From IMG/VR virus record IMGVR_UViG_3300042905_003821: a DNA stretch of 20,000 nt; one strand, given 5' to 3'. This DNA comes from an uncultured virus (IMG/VR IMGVR_UViG_3300042905_003821) (taxonomy: Duplodnaviria; Heunggongvirae; Uroviricota; Caudoviricetes). Each line of letters opens with the position of its first letter. Positions within the stretch are counted from its first letter, which is position 1. Made by a program: the position numbers and the translations under genes. Positions 1,548-14,177 of this stretch are shown here, piece by piece. Under the pieces are notes generated by a model. The model had not been told where the DNA came from. It searched no databases and saw only the letters and a program-made list of their open reading frames with translations.

Positions 1548-3233
1548 CTACCCTACGATTGAGCCGAGTGCCACGGAGTCCCCAGCGGTGCTGGGGACGA
1601 CGATGTTGTACTTCCGGGAGCTTCCGGTGCGATATACGATGTATGTCGCACCTTTGACAAGGTTGTTGAACTGGACCACCCCTTGGTTGTCGGCGGTTGC
1701 CGTCCGGGGGGCATCCTCCATCGCCAATCCTGTCGATCCGGGCGGCGGTGACGATGCTTGGATCGTCACCTGCGCCCCTGCCTGAGCGACCCCGTTGACA
1801 TCGTTTACGGTCCAGAAGCCCGTCGTCCGTGGAGCCACGCTCGGCGTGACTCCACCGGTACTCGTCAGCGTGTACGTCTGAGAGACGTTCCCGCTGACTA
1901 CCAGCGAAACAGGCGTGAAGCTGAATCCGGCGGCGGTGATCGCGACGGTGAACGTCGCGTCATCGAGGCTGAATGATGCGACCCCGCTAGCGTTGGTAAC
2001 GCCAGCGTAGGTTTCCCCCGCGCGGTACACGCGAACCGTAGCTGCTTCGACGGGGCTGGCCGAGGAATCTCGGACAGTGATTGTCACGATCCTCGCGCCC
2101 GACCCTTGGCCGGTCGCCCCAGTGATCCAAGCCGCATCGCCGCGATCTCGGATCGCTTCGAGCGAGTCGGTTGTCTCGTTAAAATTCGCTCCGGCGGTCG
2201 TGGCGTTGATCTGCGTGCGGGTGGTCGAGTCTGCGGTCTTGCCTGCAATGGCCCCGAGCCAGTTGGCTAGCGACGTGATCCCCGCAAACAGGGTTGCGGG
2301 GATTCGGGTAACCAGAGCAGTCACGTTGGTCGCCACGGCGGCCAACGCTGTGCTGGTAGCCAAACCGTTTTGGATGGCCGCGATTGAATGGACGTGATTG
2401 GTCGGAATGATGATAAATTCATCGCCGACTGTCGGAGCCGTAGTAAACGGCTCCTCTACTGTTATCACACCGTTGGTGTTGACGTAAGTGAGTAGAGGGC
2501 TGTTCTGTTCGTTGATCGCCGCAGCGTTCGTGAACAACAAAACAGCGTGCTTAAACGCACCTGTTGGGTAGTTGACATTCGACGAAAAGCTAGTGGTTGA
2601 TGGAGTGGTCGCACTTGTGACCACTCCATCGATGACTGTGTTTGCCTTCTTGATGATGCTGATGTACTTGGCGAGGCTGTGGGCCACGTTGTCGTGGGCG
2701 TCGACACTTTCCTCTAAGACAGCATCGGCGATAGCCGATGCTGTTGGGACATCGCTTTTCTTTGCCAAAACTGTCGAGCCTTCGATCTGGACCAGTGTTG
2801 GCCGGTTGCTTACCGTTGATTCATTTGCCACACTCGCCGGGAACGCCACGGGGGCAGCGGCACTAGCCGTCTGCCCTGCGATCTTCGTGACGTTGGCATC
2901 GACGTTTCGATTCTCAATCGAGAATGTCCGAAGGATCGTTCGAGTCAAGTCTTTTCCGTCGACTGTCCCCGCAGTGAATACAATGTCGTAGTCTCTACCG
3001 ACCTCATATACCGCATCGGAAGTGTCGATCACCAGTTCATGGAACCCAGCTTTCCCATCATAATCTACGGCGGGTTGGGTTACTCCGGTAGTGAATTCTG
3101 TTGTCGAATCTTTATAGATTGCAACACTCAGAGCGACTGATGGGGTAGTCGGAATGAGCGACTGGGCAAACGTGTTGAACTTTACACGAATGACCTGACC
3201 TTTCTTGAAATCTCCAATGTATTTGTCGGACAT
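1548..3233 (-). CDS. Putative virion appendage/fibre protein with C-terminal carboxypeptidase-regulatory-like (Ig/transthyretin-like) domains (~561 aa)
   Basis: Start moved to MSDKYIGDFKKG, just after the upstream stop. Thr/Ala/Ser-rich. The C-terminal ITVRDSSASPVEAATVRV...TNASGVASF and VNDVNGVAQAGAQVTI...TADNQGVVQFNNL segments match the CarboxypepD_reg/Cna-B pattern. Confidence 0.6.
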   Translation of the reverse strand: MSDKYIGDFKKGQVIRVKFNTFAQSLIPTTPSVALSVAIYKDSTTEFTTGVTQPAVDYDGKAGFHELVIDTSDAVYEVGRDYDIVFTAGTVDGKDLTRTILRTFSIENRNVDANVTKIAGQTASAAAPVAFPASVANESTVSNRPTLVQIEGSTVLAKKSDVPTASAIADAVLEESVDAHDNVAHSLAKYISIIKKANTVIDGVVTSATTPSTTSFSSNVNYPTGAFKHAVLLFTNAAAINEQNSPLLTYVNTNGVITVEEPFTTAPTVGDEFIIIPTNHVHSIAAIQNGLATSTALAAVATNVTALVTRIPATLFAGITSLANWLGAIAGKTADSTTRTQINATTAGANFNETTDSLEAIRDRGDAAWITGATGQGSGARIVTITVRDSSASPVEAATVRVYRAGETYAGVTNASGVASFSLDDATFTVAITAAGFSFTPVSLVVSGNVSQTYTLTSTGGVTPSVAPRTTGFWTVNDVNGVAQAGAQVTIQASSPPPGSTGLAMEDAPRTATADNQGVVQFNNLVKGATYIVYRTGSSRKYNIVVPSTAGDSVALGSIVG

Positions 3234-3235
3234 GG

Positions 3236-3913
3236 TTAGCCTATCAAGAGGTTGTCGATTGGAGAGTATGAGCCGCCGCCACTGCCGCTGGTTGTTTTGT
3301 GGTCGATTTCTAGCAACTCTAAAACGAAGGTCGCCCATACTACACTCGTAGCCTGAGTTACATTTGTTGCTGGCCAAATTGCCGATCTAGTTGAATTCGT
3401 GTCGTAAGAGGCAACCTCAAAACTTGCACCTATAGAATTGTTAATAAATGTCATCCCGGACGGAGCCAAGCTTGAAAGGTTGTTGCCAGTTGCTCGGGTT
3501 GCTGCTAGGCCGACAAGCCACAAGTCTAGGGCGGATTCTTTGAATACCGGGGAAGTGATAGCCGCTTGAGCAGCGTAGCTTATTACCGTACCGGATGATC
3601 CATTTTGAGAAAGAAGTGTAGGTATTACAACTGATCTTGGGCCACCCCTGTAAGCAATAGCTGTTACGTTGGATGCTCCTGTCCACCCTGATGTACCCGT
3701 TGTTTCGGAAGCCGATTCAGCAATGTAATATCCGAGCCTGTGCGATCCGCCACTATTTGATCGTGTGTAAAGTCCTAATACACCGGGAGGCAAGGATGGA
3801 ATTCCAGCCCCCGCAAAATACGCACTATACAAAATCAGATCGCCCTTGACGTGAGTGCCAAGGGTGACACCTGTTCCGTTATTGGTTGAAAAACTGACTC
3901 GCGAGATCGCCAT
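3236..3913 (-). CDS. Putative virion structural beta-sandwich protein (225 aa)
   Basis: Ser/Thr/Gly-rich with a GDLIL...P..GWT pattern seen in phage fibre and decoration modules. TAATG-coupled to the upstream gene. Lower GC than its flanks. Confidence 0.5.
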   Translation of the reverse strand: MAISRVSFSTNNGTGVTLGTHVKGDLILYSAYFAGAGIPSLPPGVLGLYTRSNSGGSHRLGYYIAESASETTGTSGWTGASNVTAIAYRGGPRSVVIPTLLSQNGSSGTVISYAAQAAITSPVFKESALDLWLVGLAATRATGNNLSSLAPSGMTFINNSIGASFEVASYDTNSTRSAIWPATNVTQATSVVWATFVLELLEIDHKTTSGSGGGSYSPIDNLLIG

Positions 3914-4506
3914 TACAACTCTGGTTCTGGTCCAATGCCTTTGTTGTCTATGTGGTCAGTCCAGGCTTCCCGATAGGCTTGGACTCGGTCTAGTGCTTGC
4001 TCGATTCGCAGCTCACTCAATGCGACGAGTTTCATGTGAGCAAGACATGCATCGATTTCTTCGATGCTTGGGACTTCAATCACGATGTGAAATTTTTCGA
4101 TGCGATCTTGGATTCGGGCTTGCTCTAGCAGGCTGATGTTTCGCTTGACTTCGCGAGCAAGGTGTCTTGCTCCGGGGACCAAGCCAACTTGGTCGAGAAA
4201 GTTGAACGTGTTTTGGATGTCAACATCGTTCAAGGGCATCCCAGAAGATAGCTGCGAGATAGCCCAAGTTTCCCCCTGCTGCAAGAGAACGTCTTGCAGC
4301 AGTTTGCACCCACCCCTACCAAATCGCATTCCCGTTTCGGGAATCCAAACAGACGCTAGCCCTTTCCACGTAAAATCACCGGAGTTTTCAAATGGAATAT
4401 CTTCGACCAGTAACGCATCCAAGACTTCTTGCGAAGTCTTGGACTCCCAGCCGGGGACTAAACGAATCAATACTTTCAATTCTTCTGGGGTCACAGCAGT
4501 CTCCAC
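3913..4506 (-). CDS. Hypothetical protein (197 aa)
   Basis: GTG start overlaps the upstream TAG and the stop overlaps the next ATG. No recognisable motif. Confidence 0.7.
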   Translation of the reverse strand: METAVTPEELKVLIRLVPGWESKTSQEVLDALLVEDIPFENSGDFTWKGLASVWIPETGMRFGRGGCKLLQDVLLQQGETWAISQLSSGMPLNDVDIQNTFNFLDQVGLVPGARHLAREVKRNISLLEQARIQDRIEKFHIVIEVPSIEEIDACLAHMKLVALSELRIEQALDRVQAYREAWTDHIDNKGIGPEPEL

Positions 4507-4862
4507 TAGGAATTTTTGTGATTCAGGTGTCGATCCACACTATCCATGCGCTGCGACAAGTCAGAAACCTGACTAGAAAGGCCGTCGACTTTCTCAGGTA
4601 GAACCGACAGTTTTTGTAAACTGCAAGACACGTCTTGCATAGTTCCCGTATTCTGTTCCAAGTTGGAGAGTAGCTTGTCTACGGCAAGGAATAGCTTGTC
4701 CCTACAGGGAATCAAAAACTCCTTGCCGACCCAACCGCATACTCGCCACAAGGCGAACGCGACGGCGGCGAGAATGACCAAAACTACACCTGTGACGGTG
4801 TAGTTTGTTTCGGTCAACCACTCCTTCGCTTGCGAAGGATCAACGACCTGTGCCAGAAGCAT
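4506..4862 (-). CDS. Single-TM membrane protein with C-terminal coiled coil (holin/BhlA-like architecture)
   Basis: Hydrophobic stretch VTGVVLVILAAVAFALW followed by heptad-like LQKLSVLPEKVDGLSSQVSDLSQRMDSVD. Confidence 0.6.
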   Translation of the reverse strand: MLLAQVVDPSQAKEWLTETNYTVTGVVLVILAAVAFALWRVCGWVGKEFLIPCRDKLFLAVDKLLSNLEQNTGTMQDVSCSLQKLSVLPEKVDGLSSQVSDLSQRMDSVDRHLNHKNS

Positions 4863-5319
4863 TTCGACGCTCTCTCTCTACCTTGTCGGTGGATAGGGGG
4901 CCTTGGAATGTGTATTGTCGGCCATCGACTTCGGTGACTTTGTACCAGGGATACATTTTACCAGATTCTCGAAAATCGCTCTCGTAGATGGTCACGTCCC
5001 AACCAGCATCCACCCAAGAGCCGATCTGGCTCTTGTCTGTCTTGCATGGTGGGCAGTTAGGGATGCTGAACATTTCAAGTTTCGGCTTAGGAGCCGAAAC
5101 TTGAGACTTCCCCGGAGGCTTCGCCCCGGCTCCCTGCTCAGGCTCGATCCCGCACTTGCAATCCTTGCAAGTGCAATCCTCGCAGGGGCAAGCAGCGTTG
5201 TTGCATTGCTTGCTGACTTCGGACTTGGATTCACCCCTGTGGGTGAATCCCCACCCTAGGAGGACTGTTGCCAGCAACAGTCCGAGGATGACGGCTAGGT
5301 TCTTGTCTTGATCTTTCAT
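4840..5319 (-). CDS. Membrane-anchored thioredoxin/glutaredoxin-fold protein with metallothionein-like Cys cluster
   Basis: N-terminal TM LAVILGLLLATVLLGWGF, then CNNAACPCEDCTCKDCKC, then LEMFSIPNCPPCK (CxxC after a beta strand) and a downstream YPWY candidate cis-Pro motif. Confidence 0.7.
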   Translation of the reverse strand: MKDQDKNLAVILGLLLATVLLGWGFTHRGESKSEVSKQCNNAACPCEDCTCKDCKCGIEPEQGAGAKPPGKSQVSAPKPKLEMFSIPNCPPCKTDKSQIGSWVDAGWDVTIYESDFRESGKMYPWYKVTEVDGRQYTFQGPLSTDKVERERRNASGTGR

Positions 5320-6212
5320 TCGCGCACCTTGTTTCCTACAAACACCCAGAAGTCATGCCACTTCGTACATTGAAAGGCATTCTGCATGGTGAAAAGGCCA
5401 AAGCCGTTTTCACCCCACCCTTGCGAGCCGGTAGGCCCGTACATTGGATTGGAGCTTGGTCCCCAAGAATTCTCGATGTCTGGGTGAACCAGATCATCGC
5501 CACCTACCCACTTCCCAGAATGGAAAAGCGTAGCGTGGTTGCCCACGCCATTGCCTTGAACGGCGTAGCCGTTCTGCAATCGCATCGAGTTGTTCCCGAC
5601 GTGCCAAGCGTGGATCACTTGGTGATCCCTCGCGAGCGCGCTCGCGAGGGCGATCTTGAACGTCCGGTAGTCGCCTACCGGAAGTTTGTACGCCTCGAAG
5701 GAAGTGTACATGGTGGCCGCTTCCTGCGCCGCCTTGTACCACTTCTCAGGCATCTGGTTCTTGAGGTAGATGTCGTGGGGAATCGTGTACGCTTCCCCAT
5801 TCGAGTTCAGCTTGCGAGGGGCCAAGCCTCGCTTGGCCCACTCCATAGCATCTTGGAGCAGTGCCCCTTGGTCCCTGCCTCGGTTGATGTGCATGTACAA
5901 GTAGCAGTCGCTAATCACGATGTGCGGAAGCCCATCGAGATCCCTGCGGTTGTGCTTGGCGTTGACCGTGGCCGACGCTGCGCACTTCCCGAGTCGGGCT
6001 TGGTTCAAGACCCAAGCCTGACGACGCTTCCGCATCTGCTTGTAAACGTCCCCTTTGAGGGACTTCTCGATGTCGCTGGCTTCGAGGTAGAACTCCTCGC
6101 CATAGACAGGCATGTCGGCTACCAACACCCGCTCTGCGGGTGTTGGGGCCATACAACCAGCTACGACTTTGGAGCCGTCTGGGAGGGTGAAGATTTCTTG
6201 CTCGTCGCTCAT
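5316..6212 (-). CDS. Papain-like (peptidase C1 family) cysteine protease (~298 aa)
   Basis: Oxyanion Gln and catalytic Cys in NQARLGKCAASA, catalytic His in GNHATLF, Asn in IENSWG, plus GWGENGFG. Start MSDEQEIF has a GAGGAG RBS and an ATGA overlap. Confidence 0.85.
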   Translation of the reverse strand: MSDEQEIFTLPDGSKVVAGCMAPTPAERVLVADMPVYGEEFYLEASDIEKSLKGDVYKQMRKRRQAWVLNQARLGKCAASATVNAKHNRRDLDGLPHIVISDCYLYMHINRGRDQGALLQDAMEWAKRGLAPRKLNSNGEAYTIPHDIYLKNQMPEKWYKAAQEAATMYTSFEAYKLPVGDYRTFKIALASALARDHQVIHAWHVGNNSMRLQNGYAVQGNGVGNHATLFHSGKWVGGDDLVHPDIENSWGPSSNPMYGPTGSQGWGENGFGLFTMQNAFQCTKWHDFWVFVGNKVRE

Positions 6213-6592
6213 TTCAAGGACTCCTCGAACGAAGATTTCCAAGGTACGACTTTGCGTACCTTGGAGACGTTGCCGTCTTTCAGATCAACGTACCCAACGA
6301 CAGGCGGTTCGAGCTTCTTAGCTCGACCCGCTTCGACGATGGGCTTTGCCCACTCGTCGTCGCGATCTGCGTTACGGTAGCCTTTGAGTTTGTTGGCCTC
6401 AACAAACTCATTGGCACTCCGCAGGGCAATCGTCTGATCGACGGTTGCCGCAGTTTTCTCATTGACCAACACGACAGTCGAACCCGCTACATTTGTTGCA
6501 AAACTGCCCCATTGCTGGGGCAGTTTGTTTCCGAACAGTAGGAGCAGACCGCCTGCGATCATCAGCCAAGGGCCGACTCGGTTGCGGTCCAT
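6209..6592 (-). CDS. N-terminally membrane-anchored hypothetical protein (127 aa)
   Basis: AAGGAG RBS. TM WLMIAGGLLLLFG followed by a soluble alpha/beta domain. Confidence 0.7.
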   Translation of the reverse strand: MDRNRVGPWLMIAGGLLLLFGNKLPQQWGSFATNVAGSTVVLVNEKTAATVDQTIALRSANEFVEANKLKGYRNADRDDEWAKPIVEAGRAKKLEPPVVGYVDLKDGNVSKVRKVVPWKSSFEESLK

Positions 6593-6595
6593 GTC

Positions 6596-6799
6596 CTACT
6601 CCTTGGTCTTGGGCATCGTTGGGCGAACGGAGTCGCCCAAGATCCAAGTCGAAACGATGGCCCCGATCCCGAGAAGCACAGCTTCGGGGATCGGCTCGCC
6701 TGCTTGAAGGGCCTGAACCGCTTGGTAAAGCAACGGTACGAGGGTAACCACAGCAACTACGTTGCGTTTGGACTTGACGAAAAGTGCGATGAAATCCAC
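6596..6799 (-). CDS. Holin-like two-TM protein (67 aa)
   Basis: Basic KSKR motif, two hydrophobic helices and a charged C-terminal tail, matching class II holin architecture. Confidence 0.55.
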   Translation of the reverse strand: MDFIALFVKSKRNVVAVVTLVPLLYQAVQALQAGEPIPEAVLLGIGAIVSTWILGDSVRPTMPKTKE

Positions 6800-6801
6800 G
6801 G

Positions 6802-7104
6802 TTATGCCTTTGGGGTTGAAGGTGGGGTGAGGATCAGTTGGAAGATGGATTGCAGAGGCTCAATAGCCTCTGCGGTCCCTCGTTGCTCGAAGTAGTCGAC
6901 GAGGACTTCGACGGCGTCGATGGCCTTGTCGCGGTCGATCTTGACGACCGCAGGTTCTTGGGCAACTTCCACAGGCTTTGGACGCAACTGGTTGATAAGA
7001 TCAGCCAGTTGTGACTGGGGGTCGACAGCGGGTTTCTTCCCGCTGGCAACCCAGTACAAACCAAAAGCGAGTAGGCCCAGACCTAGCATGGTAGTGAAGT
7101 CCAT
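6802..7104 (-). CDS. N-terminally membrane-anchored hypothetical protein (100 aa)
   Basis: TM MLGLGLLAFGLYWVA, Pro-rich linker and helical C-terminus. TAATG coupling. Confidence 0.7.
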   Translation of the reverse strand: MDFTTMLGLGLLAFGLYWVASGKKPAVDPQSQLADLINQLRPKPVEVAQEPAVVKIDRDKAIDAVEVLVDYFEQRGTAEAIEPLQSIFQLILTPPSTPKA

Positions 7105-7361
7105 TAGTCGGCCCCCACACCTGCTAGAACGTCATCATCATCGCTTTCCACACCGGAAGTTTTCCGGTCTTGGAAATACTTGATGACGGCCAAAACCAGT
7201 TGGATGAACAAGATGACCATAGCAGGGTCGATCCCTACCAGCGATTCATCTTTTTCAATAGCTTCCTTGATCTTGTCGGTGTCGCCGTTGAATTGTCCGT
7301 TGTATTTACGGGCAAGGCGAACAGCGAGACGGCGTTGCCTGAGTCGGAGTTTTCCAAACAT
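7104..7361 (-). CDS. Small membrane protein (85 aa)
   Basis: Basic N-terminus, hydrophobic GIDPAMVILFIQLVLAVIKYF segment and acidic tail. TAATG-coupled on both sides. Confidence 0.7.
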   Translation of the reverse strand: MFGKLRLRQRRLAVRLARKYNGQFNGDTDKIKEAIEKDESLVGIDPAMVILFIQLVLAVIKYFQDRKTSGVESDDDDVLAGVGAD

Positions 7362-7570
7362 TACTCTGCCTTCCCGCCTTTCTTGGGTTCGGGCTTCTTC
7401 TCGCCCTCCACCAATTCGGGCTTCTTCTCGCCCTCGACCAATTTGAACTTCTGCTCGCCAAAGACCGCGACGAGGTCGCGGTCGGATTCGACGATCTCAC
7501 CCCTCACTGCGAACGAGACAGGCTCGTTCTGGATGACGTGTGATCCTTCAAGCAATTCGTACTTAGCCAT
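7361..7570 (-). CDS. Small post-capsid protein (69 aa), possibly a packaging chaperone or head accessory
   Basis: Directly downstream of the MCP. Lys/Glu-rich tail with duplicated LVEGEKKPE. Confidence 0.65.
   Translation of the reverse strand: MAKYELLEGSHVIQNEPVSFAVRGEIVESDRDLVAVFGEQKFKLVEGEKKPELVEGEKKPEPKKGGKAE
7388..7441. repeat. 27-bp tandem duplication (2 copies, 1 mismatch), in frame
   Basis: ttcgggcttcttctcgccctc[c/g]accaa at 7388-7414 and 7415-7441. Confidence 0.95.
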
Positions 7571-7594
7571 GAGCTAAAGCCCTAAGCCCTTGCG

Positions 7595-7640
7595 AAAAGA
7601 AACCCCGACTGCACGCAAGGGCTTAGCGTACAGTCGGGGT
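7595..7640 (-). terminator. Rho-independent terminator after the major capsid gene
   Basis: 15-bp stem (7602-7616/7626-7640) whose single mismatch is a G-U pair on the minus-strand RNA, a 9-nt loop, then UUCUUUU. Confidence 0.8.
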
Positions 7641-7670
7641 GCAGCGGGTGGTCAGATTGTCGCTACAGCG

Positions 7671-8750
7671 TTAGACGCTGTAGTGGACGATTCCGCAGTT
7701 GGAGTTGATGTCAACTTTCATCTGCGGGACCATCATTGCCATCACTCGGAACTTCTCAAGCAAGCCGCCGCGCTCTTGCCATTGGACGGTTTGAATGTCC
7801 ATTCCGATGATGGTGCGAACGGTGCTGGAATCCTCTTGGACAAGCAACAGTTGCTTGCCGGTGAGGTAATCGCAGACTTCGACGCTCGAAATTTGCGGGA
7901 TCTGCTCGATCATTCTTAGCAACGAGGTCGAATCGTAGCTGGTGGAGAACGGACGCATCATGTATTGCATGAAGCCCGTCGAGTACCACAGCTTGAACGG
8001 CCCGTAGTGCAGCTTGTCATAAGCTGCTTGGATCATCGCGATCACGTTGGTATAGGTGTCGTTGGGAACCCAACTTCCGCCTGCGGGATCAGCCGCCGAA
8101 CCGGTAATCCGGTTCGGGAAATTGGTCAACCCGTAGAGGGTTGCCCCACCAAAGGTGAACGTACCGAAGGTTCCCAAGTGGAGCTTTTCGGCTTCTTCGG
8201 CGACCTTGATCGCGGCCAGTTCCAACATCGAAGTGTCAAGCGGCGTGTTGCCGTTTCGGCTGGTAGCCAATTGACGGCTCGACATCGTCACTTCTTTGTG
8301 GATGATCGGCAATGGCAGGTTGACGAGATCGTAGATCGGACGGTCGTTGTCCCCAGGAGCCAAGGCATCCATCGAGATCCGAGCGGCACTGATGTCGCTC
8401 TGACGTTCGTATTGGTAAACCGTCTTGCCGAACCCGTTCGGCAAGTTGACCGAGAGGCCGGAGCCTCGAAGCCAGTTGACGATCTTGAGTCGCTTGCGAG
8501 CCGCCTTGACGACTACGTCGTCAAGGTACTCCCACTCGTCCTTACGCAAGGTTGCCCCGGCGTTGGTGACGTAAGCCTTGACAACGGGGTTCCCGTTGTC
8601 ATCGACTTCGCCAGTGGCGTGGTTGATGTAGCTTCGACCATCGGCTCCCACGAATGGGCGGAGGACGTTGGTATCGAACCCAGTTGCGAGCAACTGGGAC
8701 GCCATACTTCCCGACGATTGGTTGTTCAAAACAAATTCAATGTTTTCCAT
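7671..8750 (-). CDS. Major capsid protein, HK97 fold, encapsulin/Linocin-M18-like (359 aa)
   Basis: LRKDEWEYLDDVVVKAARKRL, PLPIIHKEV, LDTSMLELAAIKVAEEAEK and YGLTNFPNR motifs. Located after the protease and decoration genes. Confidence 0.85.
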   Translation of the reverse strand: MENIEFVLNNQSSGSMASQLLATGFDTNVLRPFVGADGRSYINHATGEVDDNGNPVVKAYVTNAGATLRKDEWEYLDDVVVKAARKRLKIVNWLRGSGLSVNLPNGFGKTVYQYERQSDISAARISMDALAPGDNDRPIYDLVNLPLPIIHKEVTMSSRQLATSRNGNTPLDTSMLELAAIKVAEEAEKLHLGTFGTFTFGGATLYGLTNFPNRITGSAADPAGGSWVPNDTYTNVIAMIQAAYDKLHYGPFKLWYSTGFMQYMMRPFSTSYDSTSLLRMIEQIPQISSVEVCDYLTGKQLLLVQEDSSTVRTIIGMDIQTVQWQERGGLLEKFRVMAMMVPQMKVDINSNCGIVHYSV

Positions 8751-8771
8751 GAGAGTCGGTAGTCCTTACTA

Positions 8772-9206
8772 CTAGATGAAGCGAACTTGGATCAGTTCTT
8801 GGGTTGCGACGTTCGAGGCTTCCTCGCAGATCGCAAAGACCTTGACTGGGGAACCGGTGGTTTTGATGAGGGTTCCGTCTCCGCCGGAGATCAAGTTATC
8901 CCCAACTGCGACGTTTTCGCTCGCCTTGAGGCGAGCGTATCGCTTGGCTCCGGGAACCACGTACTCGGCGTACACGCGAGTACCCTCGGCGGCGGAGTCA
9001 TTGACTCCTAAGCCTTGCAAGGCATCTTCGTGGAGAATCAAGGTTGCGCCGTCCCCGCCCGAAGTGGCGTGGACGTTGCAAGCGGTCGCCGTGGTGCGGC
9101 GAACAAGCATCCCTGGTTTGAGAGTCGCGCCGGAAGCGACCAAGAACTCCTCTTGGACTCCATCAGGCCCAGCCAGTCGAATCGTTTGTGCGAGAGCAAT
9201 AGTCAT
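8772..9206 (-). CDS. Capsid decoration/cement protein (144 aa)
   Basis: Lies between protease and MCP. The patterns LKPGMLV and VAVGDNLISGGDGTL resemble beta-tulip decoration proteins. Confidence 0.65.
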   Translation of the reverse strand: MTIALAQTIRLAGPDGVQEEFLVASGATLKPGMLVRRTTATACNVHATSGGDGATLILHEDALQGLGVNDSAAEGTRVYAEYVVPGAKRYARLKASENVAVGDNLISGGDGTLIKTTGSPVKVFAICEEASNVATQELIQVRFI

Positions 9207-9212
9207 GTGTCA

Positions 9213-9692
9213 CTAAGCCTTTGCGGAGAAGGTGGACGGAGGCAGGAAGCCTTTGACCGCAGCGGTCGAAGGCTTTGGATCGGAGGGGGCAGCCGATCCG
9301 GCGTATCGTGGAGCCGGAGCGGGTGCGGAGCCAGCGGCAGGAGCAGGGGCGGCGTTGACCGCAAAGACTGCCATCTTGTCGAGCGTTGCCGTAGGCAACG
9401 CTGCGAGTTCGTCCCTGCTGAACTGGTTCCTCTCGTTGGCTACGATCTTGTCGATCAAGCCATCGCGATGTGCGGTGTTGACGGCGAAGGCTTCTTCGAT
9501 CTTCGCTTTGACCTCGGCAGGGGCCGATGCAAGCAACTCGTTGAGATTCTTCGGAGCTTCGTTGACCACCGGGATTTCAACAGTCACGGTTCGCTGCAAC
9601 TTCGCCAAGGCCGTAACCTGATCGTCGGAGAGGTTGGTCACAAATTCTTTGTGGGATTCGCCGATTACGGCGAGGATTTCGTCGCGTTTCAT
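9213..9692 (-). CDS. Nested in-frame scaffold protein (~159 aa, MKRDEILAVIG...)
   Basis: In-frame ATG preceded by GAGCAGG and by an AT-rich promoter-like segment. Analogous to lambda C/Nu3. Confidence 0.5.
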   Translation of the reverse strand: MKRDEILAVIGESHKEFVTNLSDDQVTALAKLQRTVTVEIPVVNEAPKNLNELLASAPAEVKAKIEEAFAVNTAHRDGLIDKIVANERNQFSRDELAALPTATLDKMAVFAVNAAPAPAAGSAPAPAPRYAGSAAPSDPKPSTAAVKGFLPPSTFSAKA

Positions 9693-10379
9693 TTTGACCT
9701 GCTCATTGACTATAAGAGGTTTTGATTCTCGAACTTCTTGTATTCGATTCTCTAATAGTTTACCACCCGTGTCAGAATCCGCCAAATTTTTCTCGGATTC
9801 TGGATTGACAGGCTCTTTGTTTACTAGCAGCCCTGCTCCGTCTTTGACGGAACAGGCCCCCACTCCGTTGACGATCACCGCAAGGTGATCGGGCCGGAAG
9901 TTGCGAGCTTTCCCTGAGTATTCCTTGCCATTGTGCTGGCCGGAAGTGATTTCCTTGTCGACAAACAGGCCGGTGGAAACCTCCATCGGCTCTTGCTTCG
10001 CAAGAGCCGCCTTGATGGCGTGCCCTCCGGGCACGACATCCAAACGGGATTCGTCGAACCACGCATCAGCACGAAGTTTCTTCGTGCTGCCGTTGAACGA
10101 CGTGTTGAGGATCATGCCAACGCTGTAGTTCTCGATGGCATCGGGCAGGCATCCCGATACGAATTGGTCACCCTGCTTAGGGTGACCAACCGTGATGGGC
10201 TTGTGGTTCCAAGAGGAGACGGACTTGGTAATCTCGGATCGTTCGTACAGAACGGCTCCTTGATTACCGGTGAACACCCCCTCAACGATCATCGCCACGG
10301 GGGCTACGAGGTAGCTACGACCCGCTAGGGTCTTGCGCTGAACTTTGCTCGCTGCGAGGTTCGCTACCAGTGTTTCCAT
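9213..10379 (-). CDS. Prohead protease-scaffold fusion (DUF2213-like, ~388 aa)
   Basis: Start METLVANL with an AGGA RBS. Motifs KPITVGHP, MEVSTG and PDHLAVIVNGVGACSVKDGAG, followed by a helical Ala/Pro-rich C-terminal region. Confidence 0.8.
   Translation of the reverse strand: METLVANLAASKVQRKTLAGRSYLVAPVAMIVEGVFTGNQGAVLYERSEITKSVSSWNHKPITVGHPKQGDQFVSGCLPDAIENYSVGMILNTSFNGSTKKLRADAWFDESRLDVVPGGHAIKAALAKQEPMEVSTGLFVDKEITSGQHNGKEYSGKARNFRPDHLAVIVNGVGACSVKDGAGLLVNKEPVNPESEKNLADSDTGGKLLENRIQEVRESKPLIVNEQVKMKRDEILAVIGESHKEFVTNLSDDQVTALAKLQRTVTVEIPVVNEAPKNLNELLASAPAEVKAKIEEAFAVNTAHRDGLIDKIVANERNQFSRDELAALPTATLDKMAVFAVNAAPAPAAGSAPAPAPRYAGSAAPSDPKPSTAAVKGFLPPSTFSAKA
9757..9785 (-). promoter_or_regulatory. 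Internal sigma70-like promoter TTGGCG-N17-TAAACT with TGn extension
   Basis: AT-rich island inside the protease gene, about 65 bp upstream of the internal ATG. Confidence 0.5.
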
Positions 10380-10695
10380 CTTGAGATTCCTGCGGTGGGA
10401 GTTCGATTCCCTTGAAAGCCTTGGAGGCGATGCAGATAAACTTGGGGAAGATTTCCCCGTAGGCTTGATCGAAGGGAGCAGTCTTTGCGTCAGCGAGTAG
10501 CTGACGCAACGCCAACACTGAATCATTATAACTTATGCTACAATGATCGCAATTTTCGGCGCAGGGGGCTTGACAACAAGCCTCAAGCTGTGATTCGCGC
10601 GCGAGGGTTTTCAGTCGAGCAGAGCCGAGGAAAACCTCGCCTTGCTCAAGTAGTTCGACGACTTCGGCGGCGAGGTCTGGGTTGAAATTAACCAT
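10315..10695 (-). CDS. Hypothetical Cys-rich protein (126 aa)
   Basis: AAGGAG RBS and a start overlapping the portal end. Contains CCQAPCAENCDHC. Overlaps the protease start by 65 nt. Confidence 0.45.
   Translation of the reverse strand: MVNFNPDLAAEVVELLEQGEVFLGSARLKTLARESQLEACCQAPCAENCDHCSISYNDSVLALRQLLADAKTAPFDQAYGEIFPKFICIASKAFKGIELPPQESQDGNTGSEPRSEQSSAQDPSGS
10525..10552 (-). promoter_or_regulatory. Putative promoter TTGCGA-N16-TATAAT upstream of the protease gene
   Basis: Perfect -10 in a local AT-rich patch about 145 bp upstream of the protease ATG. Confidence 0.4.
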
Positions 10696-12211
10696 TCTTC
10701 GGTTTCTCCTTTTGGACTACGTTTCTGGGCGTTTTGCTAGGGTCTTTGGTGTTCCCAGGCTTGGGAACAGCGGGAATGCTCGACGGGGTGTTGTTCTGCT
10801 GGCCTGAGAGGCCAGCAGCCAGTTCTTTCAGAACTGGCGAGAACTCGGTTCGCTCGGCCTTGGCTATCGCCTCGGCTTCCTCGAACCGCAACCCCATGAT
10901 CTTCGTGAGCCAATCGATCAGCGGGATGACGGCTTCGGAACCGGCGGTGGTGTACCGAGCCAAGGCTTCGGTACGTTTGAGTCCGATTTCTGCCTTCTCA
11001 GCTTCGGTCATCTCGGCAAGTGGCTTCCACTTGACGATGTAGGGCCTCGGCGAGCCTCCTACGGTCTTGGTTGGGGGCAAAGCTCCCATCTGTTGGATCT
11101 TGTTGATCGTCGCCCGAATGATCTTCGGGGTGACGAACAACTCTCGACGCTGGGCGATCTTGTTTCGCCAAGCGATCTCGTCCTGCTCGTTGGTCTGATT
11201 CCCGCCGTAGTTGCCAACCAGCTTTGTGATTGGGTATCCCTTGGCCGCTGCGATCATTCGCAGCGCGTTGTCGATAAACGGCGTCGGAGCTACTAGGGTG
11301 GGGGCCAAAGGCTTGACCTCGACGCCCACACCTGCGAAGTACCGAGACAGTCCGTTCTCGTACTTGTAGATCTCCTCCTTGATCGCTTCGCGATCTTCGT
11401 CGGCCAACTCCCCATTCTGCGGATCAACCTCGAAGGCGTACCCTGGGAAGCCTCCCTTGTAGTAGGCTTCCCCGGAGGCCACGTTGATCTTTCGCACGTC
11501 GTAGAGGCGGTTGAAAACCGCCTCCATTCGAGGGAAACCAAAGATTTCGCTGGTAGTTAAGCGAGTGTCCGCTACGTGGACGACTCGCGACCAGTGAACT
11601 TGGACGGTATCGGTAACTGGGGTAGCGTTCTTGTCGAGGGTGGAGTCAATCGTGTCTTGGAAGTCCAACTCGTACATCTTCGGTAGGCCGTACCGAGGGT
11701 TGGTACGGTCCCGTTCCCACTCGGAGATCCGAGCCGCCGACTGATCGAACACTCGGTAGTAGAGGACTTTGGCGGCTCCTCGCGATTCCGCGATCCTGTC
11801 CTCGGTAAAACCGGGGGCAGGTGCGTCAAAGTCCAGTCCATCGTCCACGCCGATGAACAACACAGCGTACTGGCCGATACCAGATATGGCATCGACCTTC
11901 GCCAAGTATTCGTGGAGACTCGTCTCCACGACAAATTTGGAAATGGCTTTCTCGAAGGCCGTTTCACGGCCTTCGTCGGTTTCGTAGATGTCGGGGTACT
12001 CGGACCACGATTCCTCAGGTTCGAGCGTCACGACTCGCTGTGCGATGTCTTGACGCCGATACATCTGGACGTAGTCGTCAGTTGTGATGACTTGGGGGTA
12101 TCCCGCCTCTTGGTCGATGTCGCGTTTTTCAGTCTTGCCGTCGAGCAGGCTGTTGTAGAATGCGGCTCGGGACAGCAGGGCATTGTTGACTAGCGTATCA
12201 ATGGATCTCAT
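10688..12211 (-). CDS. Portal protein (DUF1073-like, 507 aa)
   Basis: ATGA-coupled to TerL. Motifs YRRQDIAQRVV, PRYGLPKMY, VHWSRVVHVAD and G.P.MEAVFNRLYD. Confidence 0.85.
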   Translation of the reverse strand: MRSIDTLVNNALLSRAAFYNSLLDGKTEKRDIDQEAGYPQVITTDDYVQMYRRQDIAQRVVTLEPEESWSEYPDIYETDEGRETAFEKAISKFVVETSLHEYLAKVDAISGIGQYAVLFIGVDDGLDFDAPAPGFTEDRIAESRGAAKVLYYRVFDQSAARISEWERDRTNPRYGLPKMYELDFQDTIDSTLDKNATPVTDTVQVHWSRVVHVADTRLTTSEIFGFPRMEAVFNRLYDVRKINVASGEAYYKGGFPGYAFEVDPQNGELADEDREAIKEEIYKYENGLSRYFAGVGVEVKPLAPTLVAPTPFIDNALRMIAAAKGYPITKLVGNYGGNQTNEQDEIAWRNKIAQRRELFVTPKIIRATINKIQQMGALPPTKTVGGSPRPYIVKWKPLAEMTEAEKAEIGLKRTEALARYTTAGSEAVIPLIDWLTKIMGLRFEEAEAIAKAERTEFSPVLKELAAGLSGQQNNTPSSIPAVPKPGNTKDPSKTPRNVVQKEKPKNG

Positions 12212-13617
12212 AGAATTCCCAATCGGGTGCGTTGTTTATCGAGCATCGAGAATGCCCCTGAGCTTGCGTCCACTTGGTCGTCATGCTTCCCGTTCGGGAA
12301 GTATGCGAGTTCTTCGAGGTATGGTGTGTTGTAGGCCCCCTTGACCATGTACACGTTCCCAGCGTTCACCTGAACGCTGAACGTGTCTGCCCGGAGGGTT
12401 TTCTTACCAGAAGCTAAATTGGGATAAACGCGAAATCCGGATAGCCGTTTGACGGAATCCTTCACAGAATCCACACCTGACGACCCCGGCTCGCGTTCAA
12501 TCCCAATCCGGACGGATTTTCCATCCCTATGAGCGCAGGCGACAATCTGTCGCTCGCGATCATCTGATTCCCATTGCCCTCTAATTATATCCAAAATCCA
12601 ATATGAGCCATCCTTATGCAATCCCATCTTAACGCCTACTGTGTAGTCCCCGCCACCATCAGTAGCGGCTTTATCGTAGTAGCGCACAATCTTCTGGAAG
12701 GAATCGACTCCGGGCGGGTGTTCAACGATTTTGATTCGCTCAGGCTTGAACATCCCCCCACCGAGGGGGATGGGGTCTTGGAGGATCTGGCCTGAGTAGC
12801 CGAACTGACCGAGTTCAGTCTGCATTCGGGCCAAAACAGACCGTGACAGCCGTACCGGGTCGAATAAACCATTCTGATACCTAGCACGAAGTTCAGGTGG
12901 GTTGATCTTCGGGGTGTCCTCGCCGGGGACGCAGATGTGCCGAACGCCCCGCGCGATGTAAAGCTCACTTGGATCGTCTTGGTGTAGCCTTTGCATGACC
13001 ACGAACGTCGGCGTAAGGTCTTTGTTGACCTTACGCGAAGGGATCGTCTCTTTGCACCAAGTGTTGGCCGTCTCAAGGTCTGCCTTTGATCGGACCCCTT
13101 TGGGGTCGATGGGATCGTCGACCACGATGCCGTGGGCGTGCATACCCATCACCGAGCCGCCCACCGCAACTGCGTAGCGGTCGCCGCCTCGCGTGTTGGC
13201 CCAGTGGCTTTTGGAGTTTGTGTCTTTGCTCAAGCGAATATCGGGGAAAGTGCGCTGATACAGCGCACTTTCAACCACTTGTCGGGATCTTCCCGACAAG
13301 TCAAGTGCTAGGGCGTCCGTGTAGGACGCCCCGATCATCCGGAAGTGGGGCATCCGAGTCCATGCCCAAGGGGTGAGCATCACCGAGAACAAAGTGGACT
13401 TCGACGTTCCGGGGGCGATATTGACCAAAAGGTCGTGTGTGCTGTTCTCGCCTCGAAAGACCCGTTCAAGGGATTCTTGGATTTCGTCGCAAAGGTACTT
13501 GATGTGCCAGTTGCACACCAAGGGATCTTTGACAATCGTATGCCAAAACTGCTTCACGAACTCGAAATACGAGTCGCGACAAGTCGAGGCGAGGAGTTCG
13601 TAGTAGTCGAATTTCAC
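12208..13617 (-). CDS. terL: Terminase large subunit (~469 aa)
   Basis: Walker A variant NIAPGTSKST, Walker B GIVVDDP, coupling motif VMQRLHQDD, and nuclease motifs YYDKAAT..GGDYT and HDDQVDA. The GTG start at 13617 is preferred because the longer ORF overlaps the divergent gene and promoters. Confidence 0.92.
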   Translation of the reverse strand: MKFDYYELLASTCRDSYFEFVKQFWHTIVKDPLVCNWHIKYLCDEIQESLERVFRGENSTHDLLVNIAPGTSKSTLFSVMLTPWAWTRMPHFRMIGASYTDALALDLSGRSRQVVESALYQRTFPDIRLSKDTNSKSHWANTRGGDRYAVAVGGSVMGMHAHGIVVDDPIDPKGVRSKADLETANTWCKETIPSRKVNKDLTPTFVVMQRLHQDDPSELYIARGVRHICVPGEDTPKINPPELRARYQNGLFDPVRLSRSVLARMQTELGQFGYSGQILQDPIPLGGGMFKPERIKIVEHPPGVDSFQKIVRYYDKAATDGGGDYTVGVKMGLHKDGSYWILDIIRGQWESDDRERQIVACAHRDGKSVRIGIEREPGSSGVDSVKDSVKRLSGFRVYPNLASGKKTLRADTFSVQVNAGNVYMVKGAYNTPYLEELAYFPNGKHDDQVDASSGAFSMLDKQRTRLGIL

Positions 13618-13629
13618 AAAATGGCCCTG

Positions 13630-13657
13630 TAGACAGAATTCTGATACGAAGTAAGAT
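13630..13657 (+). promoter_or_regulatory. Rightward promoter TAGACA-N16-TAAGAT
   Basis: Near-consensus hexamers upstream of the first plus-strand gene. Confidence 0.4.
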
Positions 13658-13681
13658 ACCATTAGTTTGCCTAATCTACAA
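13653..13681 (-). promoter_or_regulatory. Leftward promoter TTGTAG-N17-TATCTT with TGn extension, driving terL
   Basis: In the AT-rich divergent intergenic region, with correct spacing. Confidence 0.5.
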
Positions 13682-13735
13682 GATTTTCCACCAACCCCAA
13701 GCAATCCGATGGTCGAACCCCCAACAAGGCACGAA

Positions 13736-14128
13736 ATGGCCGAGGACGAGCGTAAGGCTCGTCTGATCCTCTCCAAAAGCACCGACACCGACGTTCGGTA
13801 CGTCTGCAAGCGGTTCATCCACTGGGTCGGCGTAGCGGATCGCTACGCCGACTCCTTCTACCCCTGCTTCGGCCTGCTCGAAGCAGAGGTCCGGCAGCAC
13901 AGGTCGTCGTTTTCCTTGGAAAACGACGGCGTTTGGCGGCTACGATCTTCCGAAGGGAAGATCGTGCTGACGGGAACAAGTCTGAAAGACTTGTTCGTGA
14001 ACGTGGTTTTGTGGAAAGGGGAATGGCCTCAGGAGGAGCTTCTGCAAGAATGCGCCGACGAGGAGGACGAGATTTTGGAAGATGCCCGAAGGGAATCTAC
14101 CAAAAAGAAGGCCACCAAAAGCGTATAA
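13736..14128 (+). CDS. Hypothetical protein (~130 aa; alternative start 13709)
   Basis: First gene of the plus-strand arm, with an acidic then basic C-terminus. No recognised motif. Confidence 0.65.
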   Translation: MAEDERKARLILSKSTDTDVRYVCKRFIHWVGVADRYADSFYPCFGLLEAEVRQHRSSFSLENDGVWRLRSSEGKIVLTGTSLKDLFVNVVLWKGEWPQEELLQECADEEDEILEDARRESTKKKATKSV

Positions 14129-14177
14129 CCCTTCGTAAAGCCTTACTTCAAGGCGCATTTGCACACGAAAGGTTACT

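Follow-up and report, generated by a model that had tools for sequence, protein, structure and literature searches.

Seven tightly packed genes of an uncultured siphophage probably form a lysis cassette in which the position of the endolysin is held by a zymogen-like cysteine protease of the C1A papain fold, and the hosts are most likely Planctomycetia. The genes fill positions 4506-7361 of the window, i.e. the whole 20,000-nucleotide stretch of DNA that was analysed, and follow the capsid region on the minus strand. The open reading frames called for the cassette, with the two genes that precede it, are the following:

7671..8750, minus strand: major capsid protein, given as context (PF19774, DUF6260, 1.3e-27 in Pfam; phrog_771, 5.9e-31 in PHROGs)
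7361..7570, minus strand: g06, 69 aa, which separates the capsid gene from the cassette and has no transmembrane (TM) segment (maximum Kyte-Doolittle mean 0.56)
7104..7361, minus strand: g07, 85 aa, small membrane protein
6802..7104, minus strand: g08, 100 aa, exported or anchored protein
6596..6799, minus strand: g09, 67 aa, protein with two TM segments
6209..6592, minus strand: g10, 127 aa, predicted thioredoxin-fold protein
5316..6212, minus strand: C1 protease, 298 aa, ATG at 6212
4840..5319, minus strand: g12, 159 aa, anchored CPPC protein
4506..4862, minus strand: g13, 118 aa, TM and coiled-coil protein

The intergenic spacing among the seven cassette genes is -23 to +3 nt, which bears out the packed and partly overlapping cluster noted in the preliminary description. 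The arrangement is not a matter of chance, since it was found again in 48 further loci. ATGA overlaps are present at both ends of the protease gene, i.e. between the stop of g10 and the start of the protease and between the protease and g12. TM segments were sought with our own Kyte-Doolittle scan (19-residue mean, threshold 1.6). Six of the seven proteins had been described as TM-bearing; g07, g09 (two segments), g12 and g13 reach the threshold, whereas g08 (1.51) and g10 (1.39) stay below it. The g06 gene is kept across the phage family of the window and probably lies outside the cassette.

Judged by its structural model, the protein of 298 aa belongs genuinely to the C1A papain-fold cysteine peptidases. 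Its homologues make up 86 clusters, and in an alignment of 34 sequences Q71, C77 and H226 are invariant, as are W250 and W266/G267, while N248 is present in at least 90%; the papain-family assignment with intact Q/C/H/N motifs was thus correct. In the AF2 model (pLDDT 94.4) the catalytic Cys77 begins a helix (77-92) and His226 begins a strand (226-237). The nearest structure is xylellain (3OIS; Foldseek E 1.4e-10; VIA Z 24.0, rmsd 2.6, 237 residues aligned), and no Pfam family matched at E<=0.1, PF00112 included. The protein has no signal peptide, as previously stated, its highest 19-residue Kyte-Doolittle mean being 0.96. The N-terminal segment is conserved (G13 and G19 are invariant in the same alignment) and aligns with the C-terminal parts of the propeptides of procathepsins K, B, L and H and of propapain. 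Among the matches listed, proenzymes align from model residues 8-9 and most mature enzymes from 34-51. We take this N-terminus to be a short region resembling a pro-segment, which would make the enzyme zymogen-like.

The constant partner of the protease is the cysteine-less g10-like protein encoded upstream, not the CxxC thioredoxin. In every one of the 48 assessable loci a single g10-like profile match ends 0-48 nt ahead of the protease, so that the cassette is indeed co-conserved, and the upstream protein accompanies all protease clusters (25/25 at 90% identity, 14/14 at 70%). A profile built from the phage family of the window alone finds it in 10 of the 12 divergent-context loci checked. 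The N-terminus of g10 carries a hydrophobic stretch of about 15 residues (Kyte-Doolittle 1.39), possibly a signal peptide or an anchor; its relatives in other loci score 2.0-2.5. The AF2 model (pLDDT 87) has a beta-alpha-beta-alpha-beta-beta-alpha topology, and the 50 Foldseek matches listed are without exception thioredoxin-fold chains, or fusions or complexes of thioredoxin. These matches are uniform but weak: the best, the b' domain of PDILT, is at 1.1e-3 and none reaches E<=0.001. As modelled, g10 is an N-terminal signal anchor followed by a cysteine-less thioredoxin-fold domain, where the preliminary description had counted it merely as a TM protein.

The protein encoded by g12 consists of an N-terminal TM segment (Kyte-Doolittle 2.23), a cysteine-rich stretch (7 Cys within residues 39-56) and a C-terminal thioredoxin/glutaredoxin-like domain with CPPC at residues 89-92; a CPPC protein ATGA-coupled to the protease is therefore present as described. 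No Pfam family matched the window protein. Several weak lines of evidence taken together suggest a thioredoxin fold: the CxxC, the cis-Pro position and a Gly are invariant among 18 g12 sequences, the profile matches are weak but point to thioredoxin, glutaredoxin, NrdH and DsbA chains in 13 of 14 rows (E 0.027-0.9), the closest Atlas clusters are thioredoxins/glutaredoxins (score 0.92), and the alignment with the Pfam-positive thioredoxin of locus L048 (hhalign E 3.5e-4) places CxxC and Pro in register. The L048 thioredoxin was missed by a profile built without the L048 sequence. The suggested partnership of protease and thioredoxin stands in part: a CxxC thioredoxin-like protein lies downstream of the protease in 35 of 49 loci, but it is not constant (15 of 25 protease clusters at 90% identity). 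In 10 loci the downstream gene encodes a signal-bearing coiled-coil protein, and in L038/L039 a secreted trypsin-like protease (PF13365, 3e-11), which points to the envelope. Among the loci listed, the gene next downstream of the protease always encodes an exported, TM or lipoprotein product.

Pfam and PHROGs assign none of the parts of the cassette to a known family of holins, endolysins or spanins, and the roles of the small membrane proteins are proposed from their anatomy. The g07 protein has a basic N-terminus, one TM segment (residues 42-60; 19-residue mean 2.39) and an acidic C-terminus, and is a candidate holin or antiholin; it has no match in Pfam or PHROGs, and its tblastn homologues (29 of 44 viral loci) all belong to the phage family of the window. 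In g08 an N-terminal hydrophobic stretch of about 15 residues, which could be a signal peptide or an anchor, precedes a helical domain, and its positional counterparts in distant family members, 100-108 aa long, have a TM segment at the N-terminus. The two TM segments of g09 (Kyte-Doolittle, residues 13-31 and 37-55) are compatible with the class II holin proposed previously, for which it remains a candidate, but its tblastn matches are confined to the nearest clade (8 of 44 viral loci: L001-L006, L008, L009). In 13 loci a homologous two-TM protein is encoded ahead of the g10-like gene. The g13 protein combines one TM segment (residues 23-41, Kyte-Doolittle 2.35) with a coiled coil (weak Pfam matches to NPV_P10, LPP and DUF1664, E about 0.01) and is a candidate i-spanin-like protein for the last lysis step; tblastn matches were found in 11 of 44 viral loci (L001-L010, L032).

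Canonical endolysins were sought in the window and in its relatives. The reported lack of such an enzyme holds for the 20 window proteins (lysozyme, amidase, M15 and M23 domains; Pfam and PHROGs) and extends to the ORFs of two relatives: G004, 70,242 bp and 100% complete by CheckV (110 ORFs against Pfam, 92 against PHROGs), and the 97%-identical G002, 52.8 kb and 75% complete (75 ORFs, Pfam only), where genes were called with a home-made codon model plus long ORFs, and ORFs spanning the boundaries of 20-kb pieces were covered in part. Nor was a canonical lysin detected by Pfam among 124 ORFs of L048, L046, L045, L041 and L035. Six-frame searches with five endolysin families gave no match in 5 records each (0/5 for PF00959, PF01510, PF01464 and PF13539; the control for the fifth, GH19, was silent). 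The proposal that the protease occupies an endolysin-like slot is supported.

The same searches bear on a different reading, which we consider unlikely: the protease would be an accessory lysis enzyme that, with the thioredoxin-fold proteins, clears a second barrier (outer-membrane-to-wall tethers or a cysteine-rich protein layer), while the peptidoglycan would be left to a muramidase that is encoded elsewhere in the genome and escaped recognition. Mycobacteriophages offer a parallel, as their LysB serves beside LysA. Most ORFs of G004 and G002 are unannotated and could include such a muramidase, and the architecture and position of the cassette would suit any lysis role. Moreover, planctomycetes possess peptidoglycan according to PMC12673574, and canonical endolysins are not foreign to Planctomycetota, since PF00959 domains (phage-type lysozyme) are present in 9 of the 401 genomes sampled. 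Against this stand the negative searches of the ORFs of G004 (Pfam, PHROGs) and G002 (Pfam) and with five families in 5 records each, and the fact that a signal-less enzyme amid genes for membrane proteins is in the classic place of a main endolysin.

The genomic position of the cassette varies. It is kept among protease clusters that share as little as about 40% identity, is carried by phages of at least four terminase types and moves between unrelated phage types. In the family of the window it is embedded in the head-neck module, with the capsid gene on one side and the head-tail connector genes on the other. In three prophage-like loci it instead separates early or replication genes from the terminase, with a DnaC-like loader and RusA on one side and TerL on the other in L046, integrase, primase and HTH genes opposite a gpA-type TerL in L045, and a serine recombinase opposite a gpA-type TerL in L048. 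We take this site to be the lambdoid lysis position, as in lambda. The position within the head-neck module would also fit a virion or assembly role. On such a reading a cytoplasmic or virion-borne protease would process head, neck or tail proteins or degrade host proteins during takeover, and the membrane proteins would be unrelated or merely regulatory neighbours. The lack of a signal peptide agrees with this, and zymogen-like proteases are common in virion maturation. We nevertheless find it improbable, given that separate head protease candidates exist (DUF2213 with head-maturation-protease PHROGs in the window, S49 by Pfam in L041), that the cassette is outside the structural module and upstream of the terminase in L045, L046 and L048, that exported or membrane proteins always accompany it, and that L038/L039 encode the secreted trypsin-like protease downstream. 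Non-lytic envelope remodelling (receptor destruction, superinfection exclusion, or modification of the periplasm or its redox state during infection) is very doubtful. Thioredoxin-fold proteins that face the periplasm could, with a protease, trim proteins of the cell surface or the periplasm, but exclusion genes tend to be confined to single lineages and to be expressed early or by a prophage, unlike this cassette, which is conserved among divergent proteases and sits in late or lysis positions. A protease that lacks an export signal, moreover, can reach the envelope only once the membrane has been permeabilised.

As regards the host, one genome per species was scanned for 185,579 cellular species, and all four confirmed matches are MAGs of Planctomycetaceae or Pirellulaceae (Planctomycetia), one within a 6.9-Mb chromosome and three on contigs that are possibly mis-binned phage. 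The earlier guess of a PVC host is thereby borne out for the family but not for the window's own clade: the capsid protein of the window was not found in the 401 sampled Planctomycetota genomes; for the window itself Planctomycetia are suggested through kinship of the cassette only. Two papers bear on the wall: cysteine-rich YTV proteins are reported from studies of planctomycete cell walls (PMC12673574), and in Planctopirus limnophila murABCDEFGJ are non-essential, while the essential genes include one for a cysteine-rich YTV-domain protein restricted to the class Planctomycetia (PMC10632474). Wall strength in Planctomycetes seems to rest on cysteine-rich proteins.

The anatomy of the cassette suggests a course of lysis in which timing, topology and protease activity are all putative. 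The genes would be expressed late, alongside the head genes, and the signal-less protease would build up in the cytoplasm, kept inactive by the short N-terminal segment that occupies the place of cathepsin and papain propeptides. Small membrane proteins, i.e. g07, g08 and g09 in the window and the conserved two-TM family in other phage types, would then open the inner membrane and free the protease. At the outer face of the membrane it would meet the anchored, redox-inactive g10, which by analogy with PDI b' domains may serve for docking, activation or chaperoning. In about half of the lineages a CxxC protein of the thioredoxin fold, anchored or a lipoprotein (g12), would be met there as well; it may hold Cys77 reduced in the oxidising periplasm or, alternatively, may reduce disulfide-linked cysteine-rich wall proteins and make them cuttable. 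Such wall proteins are the substrate we favour, peptidoglycan stem peptides being the alternative. The g13 protein, or elsewhere secreted coiled-coil proteins, would finish the disruption of the envelope.

Among known systems, the S, R and Rz/Rz1 genes of lambda are alike in their small membrane proteins, signal-less hydrolase and TM plus coiled-coil or lipoprotein components, in their overlapping stops and starts, and in their site just upstream of the terminase, shared with L045, L046 and L048; they differ in that the phage enzyme here is a C1A protease of no muralytic family and that two thioredoxin-fold proteins belong to the cassette. P1 Lyz, a SAR endolysin that is switched on by disulfide isomerisation, sets an example of a lysis enzyme that thiol-disulfide chemistry gates on its arrival in the periplasm, but it is a lysozyme with an intramolecular cysteine switch and no known separate oxidoreductase. 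Baculovirus V-CATH is a virus-encoded C1A zymogen, cathepsin L-like, which at the end of infection dissolves structural barriers of the host and frees progeny; it belongs to an insect virus, acts with a chitinase on tissues and has no known membrane or thioredoxin partners. Xylellain from Xylella fastidiosa is a bacterial C1A enzyme of similar size, and its match spans model residues 1-296, with its short N-terminal region aligned to the N-terminus of the phage protein, but it is a cellular enzyme, 22% identical, and neither a phage nor a lysis gene product; we know of no thioredoxin-fold or membrane-protein genes that accompany it. Cwp84 of Clostridioides difficile (4CI7; VIA Z 18.4 across model residues 1-298) is a bacterial C1A protease acting on a cell-surface (S-layer) protein, although this secreted cellular enzyme serves maturation, carries a lectin-like domain and is not lytic. 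The CHAP, NlpC/P60 and Amidase_5 enzymes and the pseudomurein endoisopeptidases PeiW/PeiP, all lysins of the papain-like superfamily, are, like the proposed lysin, phage thiol peptidases that cut the host wall; they belong to families C51, C40 and C71, have other topologies and cut peptidoglycan or pseudomurein peptides. The phage lysin classification, as excerpted from PMC10318531, includes no C1 enzyme, and the same excerpt presents PeiW and PeiP as a case where an unusual wall requires an unusual peptidase lysin.

The seven tightly packed genes that the preliminary description placed after the capsid gene, at 4506-7361 on the minus strand, are present as described, with gaps of -23 to +3 nt between them. 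The protease gene overlaps both of its neighbours in an ATGA. The cassette and the other recognisable genes of the window are as follows.

14804-15976, plus strand: N6/N4 DNA methyltransferase (PF01555, 8e-30)
16071-16985, plus strand: adjacent second N6/N4 DNA methyltransferase (PF01555, 4.5e-23)
12208-13818, minus strand: large terminase
10688-12211, minus strand: portal
9213-10526, minus strand: DUF2213 protein with head-maturation-protease PHROG matches
8772-9206, minus strand: decoration protein
7671-8750, minus strand: capsid protein, DUF6260/encapsulin-like
7104-7361, minus strand: g07
6802-7104, minus strand: g08
6596-6799, minus strand: g09
6209-6592, minus strand: g10, candidate thioredoxin-fold protein
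5316-6212, minus strand: putative protease
4840-5319, minus strand: g12, CPPC protein
4506-4862, minus strand: g13
Following the capsid gene on the minus strand, in order: the run of small genes, two tail-fibre-like genes, connector/neck genes

By hydropathy scan, clear transmembrane (TM) segments are found in g07, g09 (two), g12 and g13; g08 and g10 have only a shorter hydrophobic stretch at the N-terminus. In other words, small membrane proteins, holin candidates by hydropathy only, are tightly linked to an enzyme lacking a signal peptide. No known holin family was matched in PHROGs by the cassette membrane proteins of the window or of G004, a 70,242-bp complete relative, and no spanin family by the cassette proteins. 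As for a spanin pair, g13 consists of a TM segment and a coiled-coil, and the lipobox-bearing downstream proteins of distant relatives carry a CxxC domain. Genes were called with a codon-usage model together with long ORFs. A first calling by ORF length took an antisense ORF (5355-6380, plus strand, 341 aa) over the protease gene, which it exceeds in length; it would mislead length-based gene callers.

The 298-aa protease has no match in Pfam or PHROG, and its homologues (86 clusters, about 300 aa each) are all unnamed. Its residues are nevertheless those of peptidase family C1, i.e. the catalytic Gln/Cys/His/Asn and the NSWG and WGExG motifs are all there. Across 34 aligned sequences, down to 34% identity, no change is seen at Q71, C77, H226, W250 or W266/G267, and N248/S249 are conserved in at least 90%; the spacing of 6 between Gln and Cys agrees with papain numbering. 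In the AlphaFold model (AF2, pLDDT 94.4) the central helix (77-92) starts at Cys77, and His226 begins a beta-strand of the second lobe (226-237), which is the arrangement of the papain fold. Foldseek paired the model with xylellain and procathepsin K (E 1.4e-10). With VIA-align the similarity to xylellain 3OIS reached Z 24.0 (rmsd 2.6, 237 residues), some forty cathepsins, papains and mite allergens scored Z 18-20, and 348 of the 791 aligned chains had Z>=8, the best 50 listed all being C1 enzymes. By modelled fold and catalytic residues we therefore assign the protein to the C1A peptidases, with peptidase activity predicted. It belongs to a divergent, phage-specific C1 subfamily of its own, since the Pfam model PF00112 detects neither the window protease at E<=0.1 nor its relatives at E<=0.001. 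The neighbouring Atlas clusters are 80-96% viral, and PF00112 occurs in 28-29% of the members in two of the three clusters shown.

Proenzymes align from model residues 8-9, via the last part of their propeptides, and the listed mature enzymes mostly align only from residues 34-51. The N-terminal segment of the protease is conserved (G13 and G19 are invariant), and on the model we read it as a short pro-segment, a candidate block of the cleft. Among 401 sampled Planctomycetota genomes the family proper was found in only one, which was already known. The other eight matches were weak (E 1e-8 to 9e-6), formed parts of open frames of 331-1665 aa and were taken as cellular C1-like domains.

Gene order was compared over 44 viral and 4 cellular protease loci. 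A first tblastn picture, with co-conservation of g06, g07, g10 and the connector genes only and the CPPC protein confined to close relatives, was overturned by the flanking ORFs. The product of the gene upstream of the protease has the same layout in every case: a TM segment at the N-terminus, then a linker that varies and is often acidic, and then a domain of roughly 100 residues. Each of the 48 loci with upstream sequence (L032, a cut locus, was excluded) gave a single match to the g10-domain profile, and this match ends 0-48 nt ahead of the protease gene. Counted as protease clusters, these are 25 of 25 at 90% identity and 14 of 14 at 70%, and a profile built from the window's phage family alone found a match in 10 of 12 checked loci of divergent contexts. 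The AF2 model of g10 (pLDDT 87) has the beta-alpha-beta-alpha-beta-beta-alpha order of the thioredoxin fold. Each of the 50 Foldseek matches listed is a thioredoxin-fold chain or a thioredoxin fusion or complex, with weak scores (best E 1.1e-3, TM-scores 0.3-0.47), and the top row is the redox-inactive b' domain of protein disulfide isomerase (PDI). The sequence profile of the domain gave nothing significant against the PDB, the top match being a designed repeat protein (0.0037). The window g10 has no cysteine at all and its 24 aligned relatives no conserved one, i.e. there is no redox-active CxxC. If g10 does have a thioredoxin fold, it would be a redox-inactive one like the b/b' domains of PDI.

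This changes the picture of the preliminary description, in which the CxxC protein was the partner of the protease: the constant partner is the cysteine-less g10 (48 of 48 loci, versus 35 of 49 for the CxxC domain). Such an invariant partner, with its putative thioredoxin fold, is a new protease-associated module worth structural study.

The gene downstream of the protease always encodes an exported, anchored or lipoprotein product, and its small C-terminal CxxC domain is the part found in those 35 loci. In the domain alignment C15, C18, P50 and G66 are invariant in 18 sequences; the motif itself varies (CPPC, CKQC, CPAC, CxWC and others), and distant relatives have a lipobox in place of the TM anchor. 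The window g12 has no Pfam match. In the thioredoxin superfamily a CxxC opens helix 1 and a cis-Pro loop precedes strand 3, and the invariant Cys and Pro positions of the alignment agree with this pattern. The weak matches of the domain to PDB profiles (E 0.027-0.9) are almost only thioredoxin, glutaredoxin, NrdH and DsbA. The nearest ESM-Atlas clusters are likewise thioredoxin/glutaredoxin (feature score 0.92). The domain is also in register (hhalign E 3.5e-4) with the thioredoxin that stands at the same position in L048, a Pirellulaceae prophage (PF00085, 26.4 bits versus a cut-off of 23.5). With L048 and L029 left out of its making, a g12-type profile found L029/L030 (1.7e-4) and missed the L048 thioredoxin, which may have been recruited independently to this position. 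The g12 and g10 domains were also considered as paralogues, and no relation was detectable (hhalign E 0.37).

We note that residues 39-56 of g12 (window 5152-5205, minus strand), between the TM anchor and the CPPC domain, read C-x4-C-x-C-x2-C-x-C-x2-C-x-C, i.e. seven cysteines in 18 residues. Similar CxC-rich stretches occur in L005 and L007 and are absent from distant relatives; the cluster looks metallothionein-like or metal-binding.

The CxxC protein is replaced in 10 loci by a protein with a signal, a coiled-coil and a C-terminal cysteine pair, and in L029/L030 coiled-coil and CxxC domain are fused into a single protein. The post-protease genes of L031, L033, L035, L040, L041, L046 and L047 form a family-like set of secreted proteins, composed of a signal or lipobox, a coiled-coil, a stretch rich in Ser/Thr/Gly/Gln/Tyr, a C-terminal cysteine pair (e.g. 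CGPNGCY) and a basic tail. These proteins could represent a novel type of spanin or of outer-membrane disruptor. In two further loci (L038 6010-6702, L039 6027-6719) the C1 protease is followed by a trypsin-like serine protease with a signal peptide (PF13365, 3e-11); G004 has another trypsin-like gene in its early region (L051 18345-19010).

Further upstream, 13 loci share a homologous two-TM protein of 150-290 aa. No member of this family was detectable in the window's family, L038/39, L041 or L048. The window's family has g07 and g08 in its place, and the nearest clade adds the 67-aa two-TM g09. The phages that carry the protease and its partners have terminases of at least four unrelated types. 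Three loci are prophage-like, with the following gene orders.

L046 (Pirellulaceae contig): DnaC-like loader, RusA, two small genes, two-TM protein, g10-like, protease, several TM proteins and a coiled-coil protein, two unknowns, TerL, Mu-type portal
L045 (Planctomycetaceae contig): integrase, D5-type primase, HTH, two-TM protein, g10-like, protease, TM proteins, gpA-type TerL, lambda-type portal
L048 (within a 6.9-Mb Pirellulaceae chromosome, adjoining host-looking genes): serine recombinase, three small TM proteins, g10-like, protease, TM-anchored thioredoxin, gpA-type TerL

In lambdoid phages the holin, endolysin and spanins lie between the late replication/nin genes and the terminase. All three prophage-like loci have the cassette in this position, with replication or recombination genes on one side and the terminase on the other. 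The window's family and L041 differ: their cassette stands within the head module, an atypical place for lysis genes.

Judging from sequence, the window phage is a siphovirus-type tailed phage, because its 97%-identical 52.8-kb relative G002 has a gene for a tape measure protein as well as a complete replication module. A tail-terminator match was seen among the connector/neck genes of a relative. No cultured kin was found in 50,697 phage records, either by blastn of window 4000-9000 or by tblastn of the protease. Promoter and terminator scans of 3500-9300 stayed at chance level (2 found versus 2.2 expected; 6 versus 6.7).

The gene g06 (7361-7570, 69 aa) carries a C-terminal tandem duplication (LVEGEKKPE twice), and its 60-aa counterparts in L002, L003 and L005 have a single copy. 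The block at 1548-4506 (g14, g15 and g16), between the cassette and the connector genes, is inserted only in the window's clade and holds a minor-tail-protein PHROG match and a 609-aa fibre-like protein with Ig/prealbumin-like domains. It is 65-92% identical to 11707-14644 of the 97%-identical relative L001, with flanks at 97-100%, and in L007, L009 and L010 its counterpart exceeds it in length and has largely other content. The block resembles a hot spot for host-range swaps, in an unusual place. The two methyltransferase genes have no tblastn match in the 20.9-kb locus of L001 and may be a variable anti-restriction insert; the rest of the plus-strand genes in the window are unknowns. Directly after the tail genes, at L054 7633-10529 in G002 and L050 12570-16021 in G004, both relatives have a large family-2 glycosyltransferase gene (692 and 672 aa, respectively), then a second one. 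G002 also has a weak sugar O-methyltransferase-like match; in G004 two FkbM methyltransferases and, at L052 6842-7954, a gene resembling GT11 fucosyltransferases add to these, which suggests glycan modification of virions or host surface.

A host in the PVC superphylum had been guessed at the outset. For the protease family this guess holds well: the family appears tied to class Planctomycetia, because all four confirmed cellular matches, from a pattern-limited scan of one genome per species in 185,579 species, are Planctomycetaceae/Pirellulaceae MAGs. The window's own clade, however, is linked to these hosts via cassette kinship only. Between its protease and the one in L045 the identity is 56%, and the window's capsid protein was not found in the 401 sampled Planctomycetota genomes.

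The early statement that the window encodes no lysozyme, amidase or M15/M23 enzyme was borne out by Pfam and PHROGs. Transglycosylase, CHAP and NlpC/P60 domains were not found in the window either, and no enzyme of a known muralytic family was recognised in the relatives searched. Beyond the window, the search covered relatives of its phage. G004 (CheckV 100% complete) has no muralytic Pfam domain in 110 candidate ORFs and no lysis-category PHROG in 92 of them, and no muralytic Pfam domain was seen in G002 (75% complete, 75 ORFs) or in five other phage contexts (124 ORFs). Most of these ORFs, about 70 of them in G004, are unannotated and were compared by sequence only, and those spanning piece boundaries were covered in part. 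Six-frame searches of five records gave no Phage_lysozyme, Amidase_2, SLT or Peptidase_M15_4, with positive controls; the one for GH19 was uninformative, as its control gave no signal. Phage-type lysozyme domains are present in 9 of the 401 sampled Planctomycetota genomes, so ordinary endolysins are possible in the phylum.

What the data show is how the cassette is built and linked, where it lies in the genomes, which residues are conserved, what folds the models indicate, and that no lysin could be recognised. The idea that the protease occupies the endolysin slot is in part supported by the anatomy, linkage and positions and by the lack of a recognised lysin; it is sharpened in that the constant partner is the cysteine-less protein and not the CxxC one. 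On balance we lean slightly towards a function in lysis, in which the protease would be the enzyme that breaks the wall. The cassette would then be expressed late, and the signal-less protease would wait in the cytoplasm with its N-terminal segment as a restraint until the membrane proteins release it. The anchored cysteine-less partner could receive, position or activate it. Where present, the CxxC protein would keep Cys77 reduced or open disulfide-linked wall proteins, and the coiled-coil proteins would finish the envelope.

As to the substrate, the Planctopirus limnophila transposon study (PMC10632474) reports murABCDEFGJ and other peptidoglycan genes as dispensable, and a cysteine-rich YTV-domain protein, restricted to class Planctomycetia and a suggested regulator of wall rigidity, among the essential genes. 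YTV proteins were also reported in cell-wall studies of three planctomycetes, according to a review (PMC12673574). A protein target is plausible for these reasons. The same review lists peptidoglycan components in planctomycetes; the target may therefore be a peptidoglycan peptide instead, or the protease an accessory beside a hidden muramidase. The lysis role with a protein target can be carried further, and here we are distinctly more tentative: Planctomycetia phages might lyse their hosts mainly by proteolysis and not by peptidoglycan hydrolysis, with a holin-released, zymogen-like C1A protease, received by g10-type proteins and helped by a periplasmic CxxC reductase, digesting a load-bearing, disulfide-linked layer of cysteine-rich (YTV-type) proteins. 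If true, this would be the first protease-based 'endolysin' system and phage-side evidence for a functionally proteinaceous planctomycete wall.

What holds the planctomycete cell together has long been disputed. A lysis cassette would bear on this dispute, as the layer that a phage must destroy to escape is an independent read-out of the load-bearing layer. Planctomycete cells are also hard to lyse and to manipulate genetically, and the protease and its partners could serve as tools to open them.

To our knowledge, every endolysin described from a dsDNA phage is directed at peptidoglycan, or at pseudomurein in the case of archaeal viruses. In the open-access literature searched, in part among the matches listed, we found no report of a C1-family phage lysin or of a planctomycete phage lysis system. 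The phage lysins of the papain-like superfamily named in the consulted part of a survey (PMC10318531) are CHAP, NlpC/P60, Amidase_5 and pseudomurein endoisopeptidases, with no C1 enzyme among them. Compared with the holin-endolysin-spanin cassette, the present one is proposed to work alike but lacks the enzyme that defines it. A conserved mobile cassette with a papain-family protease and putative thioredoxin-fold partners in the endolysin slot, in phages apparently tied to Planctomycetia, would represent a new lysis chemistry.
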